From the IMG/VR virus record IMGVR_UViG_2740892441_000001: 64,000 nt of DNA; one strand, written 5' to 3'. Shown here piece after piece: positions 8,113-58,471 of this stretch. This DNA comes from a virus (taxonomy: Duplodnaviria > Heunggongvirae > Uroviricota > Caudoviricetes). The translations under genes were made by a program, and so were the position numbers. How positions within the stretch are numbered: the stretch's first letter is position 1; every line of letters starts with the position of its first letter. A model generated the notes under the pieces. That model had not been told where the DNA came from, searched no databases, and saw only the letters and a list, made by a program, of their open reading frames with translations.

Positions 8113-8194
8113 TTTATTGCTACAATCAACTAAGTAATTACTTACTTATTATAATAGCCAAATAACATACAAAAGGCACTAAGGAAAGAGGTTT

Positions 8195-16382: not shown

Positions 16383-16508
16383 TTCACTCTCCGTAGTGTA
16401 TTGGTTATTTTTATATTCTATGATCGTAAGTATGTACTTACAAAACAAAAAAGCCCCGTAAGGATGGCGGGGCTGTCGTACTGTCGACTAATTACCACTT
16501 GCACATTA

Positions 16509-34323: not shown

Positions 34324-34468
34324 ATGGACTCCATCCAGTGTCAGAAAGAGTTGCGGCTGGCGATTGCCAGCCGCCTTTCTCGTTCCATCCTGGAACTGTG
34401 TCTTACCGACACATTGTCATCCTGACGCCGATAAGATACATGATTTAAAATGATAGGTAAACACTTAC

Positions 34469-35062
34469 TTACTGCTTGTTATAAACAAAACCAATATCTT
34501 TCTTGTGAGGCATATCTGCTGCGGAAAAAGCTGCGATCTTCGCGAGTCGATCACATATTTCATTTTCACGATGCCCGGCGTGACCTTTAACCCACTTCCA
34601 GCGAACATTATGTCGACTTGCGGCCTCATCCAGACGCTTCCACAGATCAACATTCTTTACCGGTTTTTTGTCAGAAGTCATCCATCCATTGCGTTTCCAG
34701 AATTTCATCCACTGTGTCATGCCGTTTTTCAGATACTGGCTATCAGAGTGCATAATAACGTTGCATGGATATTTCAAACGCTCCAGCCCGATAAGTGCCC
34801 CCATCATCTCCATGCGGTTATTGGTGGTGCTATGAAAACCATCTGAGAACTCGCGTTCCTCACCACGATACTGGAGAACTATACCGTAACCGCCCGGGCC
34901 ACCCGGATTTTTAAGGCAAGAGCCATCACTGAAGATTTTCACGGTTTTAAGCTGGGGATTGAACTCTACGACAGGCGTTGTGGGATTGGTGCGGGGAGAA
35001 TTTTTGTTTTTGTCTTTTTTGCGAGTTTTTGCTTGCGACCGGGCTGGTGTCTTCGACGTCAT
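34469..35062 (-). CDS. rnhA: Ribonuclease HI with basic N-terminal extension
   Basis: Core [18 protein letters not shown]...[11 protein letters not shown]...DSQY...[15 protein letters not shown] closely parallels E. coli RNase HI; start set at MTSKTPARS (RBS GGAG). Confidence 0.9.
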
Positions 35063-35119
35063 ATAAACTCCTGAATCAAGCGCCGCGCCGTTTTTTCCTC
35101 GCGCGTGCGCACACACGTG

Positions 35120-35640
35120 CGTGTAATAATTATTAAAATAAACAAATTACTTCCCAGTACAGGTTTTTATAAACCTGAACTGAACGAACGAAGTGAGTGA
35201 AGTTCACCTCGAACGAAGTGAGAGGTTGTCTTTTCAGGTAATACTCTCCCAGGGAGGTGAGTATAAAATTCCTCACCAACCTGGTCGTTTCATAACCTGA
35301 AAAGCTATGGTCTAAGTCTACTGCCAGCTTAGACTTGGGAAGTTATGGATGACAGCACCCCAGAACCGAGATCTTCCCACACTTTATGAAGGGGAGTACT
35401 GGATTCAACCTCTCGAAACACCCCAGACTCGACAATCATAAAGTGACCCTTGTCTCCGCTCACTTTGGTTCCCCCTTCCCCGACACCTAAACGGCACCGG
35501 TTCTACGCTGGTAGTGAGCTTTTTTAAACCTGACGCCAGTGACGCTTACCCCCACCCATCAGGTCGAGTCTCCAGTCTACGACTGGAAACTATCAGATCT
35601 TAGCACTTACAATTCATCTTATGAATAGTTTGTACTTATC
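35120..35640. other. ~520 bp ORF-free region with multiple hairpins and a 12 bp direct repeat (GAACGAAGTGAG x2)
   Basis: No ORF of 60 aa or more on either strand; hairpins CAGGTTTttataAAACCTG, GGTGAG..CTCACC, GTCTAAG..CTTAGAC; AGTGAGC + TTTTTT at ~35511-35526. Confidence 0.5.
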
Positions 35641-35642
35641 TA

Positions 35643-35897
35643 TCATTTCGATTGATTATTTTCTCGACCATGTAGTTGAACATTCAAGGCAAACACCTCG
35701 TTAATCAACTCACCTAAAAGCTGTTCAACAAGTTCGCGATGCTCCCCAAGATGCAAGCACTTAATTGCCCATTCGTACAAGTTGAAAGCCTGCTCGCGAT
35801 CTTTCATCATTTCACGGGCCTGGGCCAGAAAATCGCTCTCTACGAGCGCAACGACATTAGTCGGGTATGACATGTTAGTTTCCTTAAAGTGATTCAT
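35643..35897 (-). CDS. Hypothetical small protein
   Basis: 84 aa; start may be the internal MSYPTNVV. Confidence 0.4.
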   Translation of the reverse strand: MNHFKETNMSYPTNVVALVESDFLAQAREMMKDREQAFNLYEWAIKCLHLGEHRELVEQLLGELINEVFALNVQLHGRENNQSK

Positions 35898-35953
35898 AAA
35901 ATCGATTTTAAAGCGTCTGGGAAGGGGTTCTAGTGGATTCTGTAGTGATGTTC

Positions 35954-36045
35954 AGGTCTGGAGTCTCTGATACAAAACAGCCTGCTTCCGTATATTAATA
36001 ATTAATATGTAGTTATTTATATATACAGAAGCAGGCTAATTACAG
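35954..36045. repeat. Second copy of the long palindrome (AGCCTGCTTCCGTATAT...ATATATACAGAAGCAGGCT)
   Basis: Shares the CCTGCTTCCGTATAT arm with the 4839-4936 palindrome. Confidence 0.7.
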
Positions 36046-36058
36046 ACGCCAGAACAAA

Positions 36059-36652
36059 CTAAGCAGCCTTCTTTGATGGTCTTTTTTTCCTGATCACATT
36101 CGCAGGATCATACCCTCCCAGACTTTTCATGACGTCCAAAGGGATCTTGCTTATAGAGTGCCCAGCGTCCTGACAGAATCCTCGAAAAACAACGAGCATA
36201 CTGCCACCTGGGTTGATGTTTACTTCTACCTGACCCAGATTGACGTCAGGCTCGACAAACGCTACGCGGCCACCAGACAGAATAATCGTCTCATTCGCAC
36301 ACTCTGTTGCACGCTCATACCACTTTGTATCTAGGGATTGAGGAATTAGCATCACTGTTGTAACTCCGCGAGCCTGCTCACGTATAGCCGCATCAATCCA
36401 GGGGGAGATTTTGGAGTAGGGTGGATTGAGGAAGGCAATTGTACCTGGCTGTCCCCATTCAGATTTCAAAGCATCACGCTCAACGCCTATGAAATTAGGC
36501 AGCTTTGCATTGTCCTTGTTGCAGGCAACGTCAACATCAAATGTCACTCCAAGATAACGTTGAATGGCAGAAAACAGCCAGTCAGGTGTTCTCCAGAGGT
36601 CACGAAGAGAGTTGTCGCGCTTTCGCTGTTTGATTTTTTCGGCTGCAATCAT
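36059..36652 (-). CDS. Phage Dam-type DNA N6-adenine methyltransferase
   Basis: DLWRTPDWLF and AFLNPPYS motifs characteristic of the phage Dam family. Confidence 0.8.
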   Translation of the reverse strand: MIAAEKIKQRKRDNSLRDLWRTPDWLFSAIQRYLGVTFDVDVACNKDNAKLPNFIGVERDALKSEWGQPGTIAFLNPPYSKISPWIDAAIREQARGVTTVMLIPQSLDTKWYERATECANETIILSGGRVAFVEPDVNLGQVEVNINPGGSMLVVFRGFCQDAGHSISKIPLDVMKSLGGYDPANVIRKKRPSKKAA

Positions 36653-36835
36653 CTTCTTTCTCGATAGGTAAGTAAATACCTATTTTTGCATTTGATTTTA
36701 TGTCTGGCAATCAAATAAAACGCGCCAGAAATGCAAACGAGAAGCTCTCTGGCGCGTTTTTGTGGTGCTGGGTATGTGATTGGCTTACCCAGCACTATAA
36801 AGCTCTCTATGGGCTTTATTTTCAGTAGGGGAACG

Positions 36836-37803: not shown

Positions 37804-38352
37804 TTACACAATTTCAGAGGGTAATTTAAAAAATCCGTACTTATTACGTGCCTTAAAGAAGCATTGCATCATTAAGTTTGTGTCATATAAGGCACTATGT
37901 GCTTTGGCATGATCGTATATAAAGCCAAGAGAGAAGGCCAACTCTTCAAGGCGGGGACGTTTACCGTCTTCTGTGGCCCACAGGGAAAATAGAGTGTCAA
38001 TCAATGGGATGTCTGGAAGCGAAAAACCGTAACTTTTCAGCTCATGCCTAATAAACGGAATATCGAACGCTTCGCCGTTGTGGGCTATCCAAATATCGGA
38101 AGAAGAGAGATACGAAGCGACAGATGAAGCGTGATCGGCTAGTAACGGCTCGGCGGCTAAATCTTCAAGACTGATGCCGTGTACCGCTTGCGCTTTCGGA
38201 TCGATACTGCGACGCGGGTTGAACCGCATTGCAAAACTATCAACCATTGTCTGTGTCTCAATTTCGTACTTCACCATTGCGATTTCAATGATTTTATGGC
38301 CTGAGAGGAAATCAAGACCTGTTGATTCGATGTCCACCCCTGTAGCAATCAC
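37804..38352 (-). CDS. DnaQ-like (DEDD) 3'-5' exonuclease
   Basis: Exo I VDIESTGL, Exo II IAHNGEAFDIPF, Exo III HSALYDT motifs. Confidence 0.8.
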   Translation of the reverse strand: MIATGVDIESTGLDFLSGHKIIEIAMVKYEIETQTMVDSFAMRFNPRRSIDPKAQAVHGISLEDLAAEPLLADHASSVASYLSSSDIWIAHNGEAFDIPFIRHELKSYGFSLPDIPLIDTLFSLWATEDGKRPRLEELAFSLGFIYDHAKAHSALYDTNLMMQCFFKARNKYGFFKLPSEIV

Positions 38353-39143
38353 TTTTTATCTCCTTTTACTGGTCGTTTGGACGGTGTGAAGATGGCAGCT
38401 TCAACATCCCACCCCCTCAAAATTCGCTGCGAGATAATGGTCGCAGTCAAGCCAACCTCTCTAGCCCATTCGGTAATTCGCTGAGTTCTGCCGCGACACT
38501 CGATCAGACGCTTACTATCTCGGTTGGCATACGTGTCGACGCTGGCGTTAAGCGCGCGATCTAATGGCCACCCTTTCTTGATTCGATAGTGAAGAGTTGA
38601 TGTCTGAATCCCGGCTCTTTTAGCCCATTGTGAGAGAGTCAGCTTTTCCCCCTTATGCTCCAAAATTAAGTTTGAACGCGTGTTATTGGCCTGTTCTTCA
38701 AAAGTCGCCCATCTGCAATTTTCAGGTTCGTAGTCACCATTCACATCTTTGCGATCAAGAGACATCCCCTCTGGTCGCTCTCCCATGTCAGCATAAAAGT
38801 TTTCAAATATTTGCCACCGCTCGCAGACTTTGATACCTCGGCCGCCATACCACTTATAGGCGTGATGGGTTGGTTTTTCACATCGTTCCCGCATACCCAG
38901 CCATATACGATAAATTGGCGTTTTACTCATACCATGAGGCTTTACGCTACGGCGATGTGCGTTGTAGACACAGCCACACGATATTGTCGCCCCGTGATTT
39001 AGCTTCCCGTAACTAACCAGGCAGGTGTTGCCGCAATCGCAGATGCAATCCCAAAGTCGCCCTTGTTTGTTTGAAATACCGGAATATTTAAGTGCAACCA
39101 ACTTTCCAAAACGTTTACCTGTTATGTCTACCGGTTGTCCCAT
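38349..39143 (-). CDS. HNH/AP2-type homing-endonuclease-like protein
   Basis: Cys cluster CICDCGN...CGC plus IYRIWLGMRERC...YGGRGIKVCERW...F.NFYADMG typical of phage free-standing HNH endonucleases. Confidence 0.65.
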   Translation of the reverse strand: MGQPVDITGKRFGKLVALKYSGISNKQGRLWDCICDCGNTCLVSYGKLNHGATISCGCVYNAHRRSVKPHGMSKTPIYRIWLGMRERCEKPTHHAYKWYGGRGIKVCERWQIFENFYADMGERPEGMSLDRKDVNGDYEPENCRWATFEEQANNTRSNLILEHKGEKLTLSQWAKRAGIQTSTLHYRIKKGWPLDRALNASVDTYANRDSKRLIECRGRTQRITEWAREVGLTATIISQRILRGWDVEAAIFTPSKRPVKGDKK

Positions 39144-42267: not shown

Positions 42268-42437
42268 AAAAACCTCACAAAGATAAGTAATTACTTATTC
42301 ATCGTGTGAGTTTACATTCATTGAGAGAACAAGACCAGACAGATAAAAAAATGGTGGCCATAGGCCACCAAAACGAATAGTCATTCCAGAGTTTTATTAC
42401 GCATGTTAAATATACACAGATAGATAACTACCTACAA

Positions 42438-58412: not shown

Positions 58413-58471
58413 GTGTTTTCCTATGTGGTTATTGTGTGCTAATGATAAGTAAGTACTTATACATTTTCAAC

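Follow-up and report, generated by a model that had tools for sequence, protein, structure and literature searches.

What occupies the gap upstream of the RNase HI gene (rnhA) in an SSU5-like phage-plasmid of Escherichia coli, a stretch that evolves more slowly than the genes on either side of it? The locus lies in the 64,000-nucleotide stretch of DNA analysed here, henceforth the window (IMG/VR virus record IMGVR_UViG_2740892441_000001, Caudoviricetes), within a block of replication and nucleotide-metabolism genes on the minus strand. A sequence-only reading, made without database searches, had described the interval as free of open reading frames (ORFs), rich in hairpins and flanked by minus-strand genes only, and had proposed either a structured non-coding RNA (ncRNA) or a cis-acting site. 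The description is accurate: the gap contains no ORF longer than 48 amino acids (aa), the flanking RNase HI gene, the gene for an 84-aa protein and the rest of the block are all on the minus strand, and the minimum free energy z-scores (-4.1 for the plus strand, -3.7 for the minus strand) are such that 0 of 100 shuffled sequences fold as well. As for its nature, the evidence strongly supports a free-standing structured ncRNA gene of about 445-460 nt, hereafter type A, that is specific to the SSU5-like phage-plasmids of Enterobacteriaceae; we put the probability of a minus-strand ncRNA gene at about 85%. Conservation of the sequence and of its hairpins, compensatory base changes, a candidate promoter and a published transcript signal all point in this direction, with the ends of the RNA predicted only. 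Neither of the two findings that the sequence-only reading had named as refuting it, a missing transcript and hairpins that differ in related genomes, was obtained. The gap and the core of the RNA are as follows.

35063-35642: gap with the element, between the RNase HI gene and the 84-aa protein gene

35146-35572, minus strand: conserved ncRNA core, 427 nt, about 17 helices

The decisive feature of the locus is an island of conservation. The 2.3 kb surrounding the element are 98% identical to the Escherichia phages CMS-2020a, Cyrano and PhiR41_1. At larger distances, identity over the gap by itself is 93.8% to SSU5 and 90% to the Klebsiella phages; with the coding flanks included, the identity over 2.3 kb is 79% to SSU5 and 77% to the Klebsiella SSU5-like phage-plasmids. 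In 60-nt windows, positions 35184-35542 show 92-100% identity to SSU5, against 63-87% for the RNase H, 84-aa and Dam genes. The conservation of the core ends at 35146. Within the core, 72% of the unpaired and 80% of the paired positions are invariant, and the longest invariant run, 43 nt at 35185-35227, is unchanged in 27 representative and 57 unique sequences. This run harbors the direct repeat noticed earlier, which is real, although its length is 13 nt rather than 12 (CGAACGAAGTGAG at 35185-35197 and 35210-35222).

The element is widespread. It was detected in 687 PLSDB plasmids from Klebsiella, Escherichia, Enterobacter, Salmonella, Citrobacter, Cronobacter and Shigella, of which 677 are typed as non-mobilizable and most of the listed records span 105-120 kb, and in 232 of 5,426 complete E. 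coli genomes (4.3%). It is also present in all SSU5-like IMG/VR contigs with an RNase H of at least 75% identity. Public records either leave the site unannotated, as do the E. coli genome records listed, or assign a hypothetical protein to it. The RNase H loci of other phages (38-49% identity, and L063 and L067) lack the element; all but one of these distant loci have no upstream gap, and the exception (L081) has a 363-nt gap without a match. A truncated copy comprising only the 3' 330 nt resides in the chromosome of Buttiauxella gaviniae ATCC 51604 (NZ_LXEP01000001.1; L157, 4835-5163), where it is fused, without RNase H, to an unrelated 387-aa gene; another gene of this 387-aa family begins close to the RNase H gene in L063.

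On which strand is the RNA encoded? The alignment comprises 57 unique sequences, 27 of which serve as representatives at less than 99% identity; pair types were counted in 56 unique sequences. The minus-strand consensus fold comprises 17 helices with a total of 132 pairs and has an energy of -149 kcal/mol. A possible pseudoknot would join GGAACC (35471-35466) to GGUUCU (35366-35361). Among the 27 representatives, nine pairs change on both sides, compared with 4.1±1.2 in shuffled alignments (0/500) and 0-4 in slid controls, and the covariation score is 0.064, against 0.047 and 0.011-0.021, respectively. The helices of this fold include 28 mismatched cells on the minus strand and 447 when read on the plus strand. 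When each strand is given its own best consensus fold, the minus strand reaches -149 kcal/mol with 11 both-side pairs and 7 pairs of at least three types, and the plus strand -114 kcal/mol with 7 and 2, respectively. Many of the pairs pass through a GC, GU, AU series or its mirror image.

35498/35482, minus strand: GC 20, GU 25, AU 11

35497/35483, minus strand: GU 45, GC 8, AU 3

35334/35310, minus strand: GC 20, GU 31, AU 5

35517/35460, minus strand: UA 33, UG 8, CG 15

35558/35534, minus strand: UG 43, UA 13

On the plus strand, the GC, GU, AU series would entail C·A mismatches, so that only the minus strand fits. Thus, contrary to the sequence-only reading, which had the RNA running against its neighbors, the G-U and covariation pattern places it co-directional with the flanking genes. 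Fully compensated pairs are 35564/35528, 35563/35529, 35559/35533, 35443/35382, 35333/35311, 35332/35312 and 35173/35164, and compensatory changes are spread over at least five helices. From the 5' to the 3' end, the predicted RNA is organized as follows.

35597-35625, minus strand: candidate sigma-70 promoter, -35 TTCATA (35625..35620), 17-nt spacer, extended -10 TGcTAAGAT (35605..35597; -10 box itself 35602..35597)

35567-35591, minus strand: 5'-terminal hairpin, directly before an invariant CUCGA

35527-35565, minus strand: helix P2, a long hairpin rich in G-U pairs, with the strongest support of all helices

35520-35526, minus strand: unpaired A-rich linker between P2 and P3 (AAAAAA in the RNA, T6 on the plus strand), 5 to 8 long

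35458-35519, minus strand: domain closed by P3 (35519-35513/35464-35458), containing P4 (35500-35480) and the G-rich GGGGAAGGGGGAACC

35310-35334, minus strand: hairpin P13 with a GGCA loop, covariation at 35334/35310, 35333/35311 (UA, UG, CG) and 35332/35312 (CG, UA)

35185-35227, minus strand: longest invariant run, twin repeats CUCACUUCGUUCG (35222..35210 and 35197..35185) flanking hairpin P16

35154-35183, minus strand: 3' hairpin P17, compensated pairs 35173/35164 (UA to GC) and 35172/35165, variable loop

35156..35146, minus strand: invariant CUGGGAAGUAA, after P17

35128-35145, minus strand: U-rich tail beyond the core, candidate region of the 3' end; most clades have the U-rich tract, which is weak in the Klebsiella clade

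The support for P2 comes from AU to GC changes at 35564/35528 and 35559/35533 and from a CG to UA change at 35563/35529 that passes through a UG intermediate. The promoter was read from the sequence, with a score of 8/12 that falls under the scan threshold in the window, and the predicted RNA start is at about 35591-35589. The homologous site of SSU5 (TTTAAA, 17 nt, TAAAAT, with the TG extension, on the minus strand) is the only promoter-like site reported by the scan there. A -10 box of the form TAnnAT is found in every clade, and the hairpin begins about 7 nt downstream. Across eight clades, this hairpin has eight differing sequences, all of which fold at the same position; the retention of shape under a changed sequence is consistent with a protective stem at the 5' end. 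An inverted repeat peculiar to the E. coli clade (35602-35636; arms of 16 nt with 75% complementarity; core TTCATAAGATGAA) overlaps both the -35 box and the spacer.

Is the element transcribed? Phage Cyrano, which is 96.6% identical to the window across the element, is carried as a phage-plasmid by E. coli LF82, for which RNA-seq data have been published (PMC9928086). The Cyrano record contains, within the element, an ORF annotated as a hypothetical protein, CYRAN_81 (OV696614.1, 78657-78791), which corresponds to the following spurious ORF of the window.

35329-35463, minus strand: spurious 44-aa ORF with a GTG start, inside the RNA, homologue of CYRAN_81

CYRAN_81 was reported as a prophage 'moron' expressed 12-fold over the prophage background (PMC9928086, Table 1). 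In LB medium, its normalised count is 117, compared with 9.5 for the upstream gene and 8.4 for RNase H, so that the element exceeds both neighbors about 12-14-fold, and more in other conditions (PMC9928086, S1 Table). Across five conditions, the log2 fragments per kilobase per million for CYRAN_81 are 6.8-6.9 (LB, stationary), 9.0-9.3, 6.9, 8.2-9.0 and 10.3-10.35 (macrophages, 6 h), and those for RNase H are 2.6-5.0 (PMC9928086). The peak, an approximately ten-fold rise, is reached in macrophages at 6 h, and the signal falls roughly 14-fold or more before rnhA. This distribution, high in the element and near background in both neighbors, indicates transcription in lysogens from the element's own promoter, with most transcripts stopping or being processed before rnhA. 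Accumulation of the RNA in lysogens while both neighboring genes stay near background is thus strongly supported.

Further insight comes from more distant Klebsiella phage-plasmids, the flanking proteins of which are about 50% identical to those of the window. The gene order is kept (Dam, a small gene, a gap of about 600 bp, RNase H, TerB), and the gap is filled by a different RNA.

L160, 1848-2400; L161, 1928-2470; L163-L166: type B RNA, about 500 nt, from Klebsiella plasmids NZ_CP055187.1, NZ_CP011594.1, NZ_CP084809.1, NZ_CP138770.1 and NZ_CP103584.1

No homology between types A and B was found with nhmmer, even with --max, and the two share only four 8-mers. Type B is carried by 30 Klebsiella plasmids, and its gap is 86% identical between plasmids with RNases H only 51% and 37% identical to the protein of the window. 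The gene-sense strand folds best, and five sequences show 17 pairs that covary on both sides; a promoter-like site is present at the equivalent place, and there is no match to Rfam. In three type B plasmids, a gene on the opposite strand, convergent with the RNA, stands in place of RNase H, and the RNA is kept. By analogy, the persistence of type B without rnhA suggests that the RNA in this slot is not simply an rnhA leader. The slot appears to select for a structured RNA of either type, and the occurrence of two unrelated RNA types in one slot suggests a type-specific function, for example, control of the prophage state (immunity or maintenance).

How might the RNA work? We tentatively favor, at slightly under even odds, a mechanism in which the stable folded RNA would act in trans during the plasmid or prophage state. 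Invariant unpaired and repeated segments, such as the twin CUCACUUCGUUCG, would be recognized by a protein or a short RNA seed, and the RNA would function in the prophage state as a scaffold, sponge or regulator, possibly in a type-specific manner; its mode would be neither long antisense pairing nor that of an obligatory RNase H leader. The near-equal invariance of unpaired and paired positions and the 43-nt run with its twin repeats point to nucleotide-specific recognition, by a protein, through tertiary structure or by a short seed. A blastn-short comparison of the RNA with the remainder of the window and with the further 45 kb of a plasmid with a 100% identical element (roughly 109 kb in all) yielded only chance-level matches, and this lack of extended complementarity in the genome favors a trans-acting folded RNA over a long antisense RNA. 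A 16-nt duplex (one G·U) with the tail-J mRNA (L162, 32566-32581) is neither conserved nor co-varying in the SSU5 and Klebsiella relatives and was treated as a chance match.

Several observations weigh against this explanation, both the minus-strand gene and its proposed mode of action, or limit the case for it. The terminator scan of the minus strand reported no canonical terminator at the 3' end, so the RNA could represent the stable 5' portion of a transcript that is longer and attenuated. Type A always adjoins rnhA, bar the one truncated chromosomal remnant. Because the aligned sequences have diverged little (mean column identity 93%), the significance indicated by the shuffle controls is inflated. 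The helices of the 3' half (35185-35380), where the sequence is invariant, lie beyond the covariation test and stand as predictions. The RNA-seq library is strand-resolved, yet the per-gene counts may not be strand-specific. Finally, no partner protein or target was identified.

The most probable alternative, which we nevertheless regard as unlikely, is that the RNA would be a cis-acting leader or attenuator of rnhA and the early genes downstream, made from a constitutive promoter, present in lysogens as a stable, prematurely ended leader and read through only in lytic growth. Immunity by premature termination is the strategy of P4 (CI RNA) and P1 (c4), and the features shared with P4 CI and with the c4 RNAs of P1 and P7 are a plasmid-prophage element, a lysogeny-active promoter at the head of a silent early or replication block, internal repeated and complementary motifs, and type-specific variants. 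The RNA lies immediately upstream of rnhA in the same orientation, with no strong promoter in between; its 12-14-fold excess over rnhA in LB, larger still in other conditions, would fit, and the lack of a canonical terminator suggests regulated termination. A CUCAC(U) motif occurs four times and its complement GUGAG twice inside the RNA, so alternative pairings are possible, but these motifs are also used by the consensus fold. The two types, each strictly conserved within itself, resemble heteroimmunity determinants. On the other hand, type B persists where a convergent gene replaces rnhA, and hence without a co-directional gene downstream, and the RNA is conserved far better than rnhA. Mature P4 and P1 immunity RNAs are about 70-80 nt in length, much smaller than type A with its approximately 450 nt and 17 helices, which has no sequence or structure match to Rfam C4 or any other family, no evident terminator/antiterminator pair and no complementary target in the genome.

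A second alternative is a primer RNA or R-loop origin similar to that of ColE1, in which a persistent hybrid of the G-rich transcript and its template would be processed by RNase H of the host or the phage to a primer near the AT-rich and alternating tract at 35100-35150. ColE1 RNA II is a plasmid primer RNA that undergoes RNase H processing, and type A shares with it the character of a highly folded, G-rich plasmid transcript of several hundred nucleotides with an RNase H function adjoining it and with unrelated types in related replicons. Indeed, the RNA is G-rich (126 G, 93 C), with an RNA-sense GC skew of +0.28 to +0.44 over 35350-35500 and the runs GGGUGGGGG and GGGGAAGGGGG; it is expressed in the plasmid state; the RNase HI gene lies immediately downstream, in a replication and nucleotide-metabolism module; and an AT-rich stretch and a 26-bp alternating purine-pyrimidine tract follow the RNA. 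We consider this origin improbable nonetheless. Neither an origin nor a GC-skew inflection was found at the locus, and MOB-suite types the plasmids by separate rep clusters. There is no match to the Rfam RNAI family, and a search for an antisense RNA I over 35480-35590 found no plus-strand promoter and terminator pair, the only nearby plus-strand site (35584-35613) pointing away. Furthermore, RNase H is dispensable for keeping type B, given that some plasmids retain the RNA without rnhA, and the invariance of the 3' half would be left unexplained.

A site acting at the DNA level (an operator cluster, iterons, a site for packaging or partition, or a structure formed by single-stranded DNA), the cis-acting option of the sequence-only reading, is less likely than an RNA gene, and we give it only a very small chance. 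The two invariant 13-bp repeats, 25 bp apart and with a third related copy, and the extreme conservation of the primary sequence over 35185-35380 would fit such a site, and G·T pairs are tolerated in folded single-stranded DNA as well. However, the strand-asymmetric GC, GU, AU series and the compensation in at least five helices indicate a folded single strand, an abundant transcript limited to the element has been recorded, the promoter is conserved in position, and tandem repeats are absent.

Even less probable is the plus-strand RNA that the sequence-only reading had ending at a hairpin followed by T6 (35511-35526), antisense to the direction of the neighbors. In its favor are the plus-strand fold, which also beats its shuffles (z -4.1), a weak pair of -35- and -10-like boxes near 35147-35175, and one pair of the 3' hairpin (35161/35176) for which the Klebsiella clade has G·U when read on the plus strand but A·C when read on the minus strand. 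Against it stand the 447 versus 28 mismatched cells and a best plus-strand consensus fold that is 35 kcal/mol weaker, with fewer covarying pairs. The T6 run itself exists (35520-35525), but its stem has only 4 bp (35503-35506/35511-35514), is broken in the Klebsiella clade (A35505G, A35513T), is not conserved and was not reported by the terminator scan; a Rho-independent terminator on the plus strand, that is, a conserved G+C-rich stem of at least 5 bp followed by a T-run, was not found. The run varies from T5 to T8 among relatives, as expected for an unpaired linker.

The least tenable alternative, a small protein gene that would account for both expression and conservation, has in its favor the coding sequence in OV696614 and its listing as an expressed 'moron', but the 44-aa ORF begins with GTG and is disrupted in relatives by indels of 1, 2 and 3 nt (35419-35421), the 48-aa ORF has lost 1 nt in relatives, the reading frame is accordingly not kept, the conserved stretch runs about 300 nt past the ORF, and the nucleotide identity is above that of real coding genes; the frame-breaking indels imply that the ORF is non-coding and CYRAN_81 mis-called.

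To what kind of RNA, then, would the minus-strand ncRNA belong? The Rfam scan suggested by the sequence-only reading gave no match at gathering thresholds in the whole window (Rfam 15, including C4, RNAI, tmRNA, RNase P, group I and II introns, GOLLD, ROOL and riboswitches), and a permissive scan of 34900-36100 returned only sub-threshold miRNA-like noise. ARAGORN found no tRNA or tmRNA genes in the window, and Tandem Repeats Finder no tandem repeats, the two 13-nt repeats not being in tandem. A retron is not indicated: the neighbors are RNase H (PF00075), the 84-aa protein and Dam, with no reverse transcriptase domain. The label 'Reverse Transcriptase 3' in the Cyrano record presumably reflects Pfam RVT_3; the protein of the window matches the RNase_H domain only.

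Among known systems, GOLLD, ROOL and OLE-type RNAs, which form Rfam families, are large orphan structured ncRNAs that are often carried by phages or prophages. Type A resembles them in its length of more than 400 nt, many conserved helices together with conserved unpaired nucleotides, residence in a mobile element and a function unreadable from the sequence; unlike them, it resides in phage-plasmids of Enterobacteriaceae and has direct evidence of expression in lysogens, and it shows no similarity to these families. With type III toxin-antitoxin systems (ToxI) it shares a promoter, an abundant RNA, a partial stop and a downstream nuclease gene, with the RNA in large excess over the nuclease mRNA; in contrast to them, there is no array of tandem repeats of ~34-40 nt, the nuclease is an ordinary RNase HI without a PADLOC match, and type B is kept without it. 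We found no description of the RNA in the literature on SSU5, pHCM2, PhiR41 and phage-plasmid ncRNA. Type A is thus a new family of RNA within a kind that is broadly known, that of prophage-encoded, lysogeny-expressed ncRNAs or large orphan structured RNAs, made unusual by its size, its conservation and its pairing with type B. A bolder possibility, which we consider doubtful, is that types A and B found a new class of large structured RNAs, a dormant-state RNA machine or ribonucleoprotein (for example, a sequestering scaffold, a ribozyme, or a type-specific maintenance or immunity determinant) unlike antisense immunity RNAs.

The flanking genes belong to an extended replication module.

36059-36652, minus strand: Dam methyltransferase gene

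35643-35897, minus strand: 84-aa protein gene (phrog_5343)

34469-35062, minus strand: RNase HI gene (rnhA), Pfam RNase_H, E 2.6e-44, residues 40-178

Farther along the block are genes for a TerB-like protein, a DnaQ-like exonuclease, NrdAB, ThyA and DHFR, and the phage-plasmid also codes for DnaE, primase, a DnaB-like helicase and ligase. An HNH endonuclease-like gene (phrog_374; 38349-39143), which may encode a homing endonuclease, is inserted in this module beside the DnaQ-like exonuclease gene. The first 39 codons of rnhA (34946-35062) encode a lysine/arginine-rich, low-complexity N-terminal extension (residues 1-39) that precedes the RNase_H domain, and a comparable basic extension is found in the RNases H of type B plasmids. 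Between the RNA and the ribosome-binding site of rnhA lies a 26-bp, perfectly alternating pyrimidine-purine tract that is prone to form Z-DNA (35100-35125; CGCGCGTGCGCACACACGTGCGTGTA); the alternation is retained in most of the relatives compared, despite their differing sequences. The 84-aa protein matches no Pfam family. It was considered as a Rop-like RNA binder, and this candidate was rejected: the single-sequence AlphaFold2 model (predicted local distance difference test score, 73) is a generic helical bundle with no PDB match at E < 2. A comparison of the neighboring proteins with the defence-system models of PADLOC gave only orphan-methyltransferase matches. Just past the Dam stop codon, there is a long, AT-rich, near-perfect inverted repeat (35952-36058; AGCCTGCTTC...GAAGCAGGCT), which is the source of the weak miRNA-like Rfam noise and which, being followed by GUUUUGUAU on the minus strand, is probably the Dam terminator.

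The palindrome TAAGTA-NN-TACTTA is found in 23 copies in the window (up to 2 mismatches), against 1.8 expected.

8131-8144, 16427-16440, 42284-42297, 58446-58459: perfect copies of TAAGTA-NN-TACTTA

34454-34471, 36006-36019, 36669-36682 and others: near copies

Several copies are intergenic and precede minus-strand genes, which makes the palindrome a candidate operator or phage-specific promoter element. The RNA promoter is accompanied only by a degenerate half-copy (35628-35640), which may be why this promoter, and no other, is active in lysogens.

SSU5-like phage-plasmids are common in clinical isolates of E. coli, Klebsiella, Enterobacter and Salmonella and carry resistance genes. The slowest-evolving stretch near their replication genes is, under the reading that we favor, an unannotated RNA gene that is on in lysogeny, and the published annotation of this locus as a protein-coding 'moron' is corrected accordingly. 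Few bacterial RNAs of this size are listed, and types A and B contribute a new family of large structured RNAs and a second, unrelated one. Should they indeed represent a new class, the strong induction in macrophages may tie these RNAs to host physiology. In any case, the RNA gene provides a testable handle on the control of dormancy, copy number or host interaction in these phage-plasmids.

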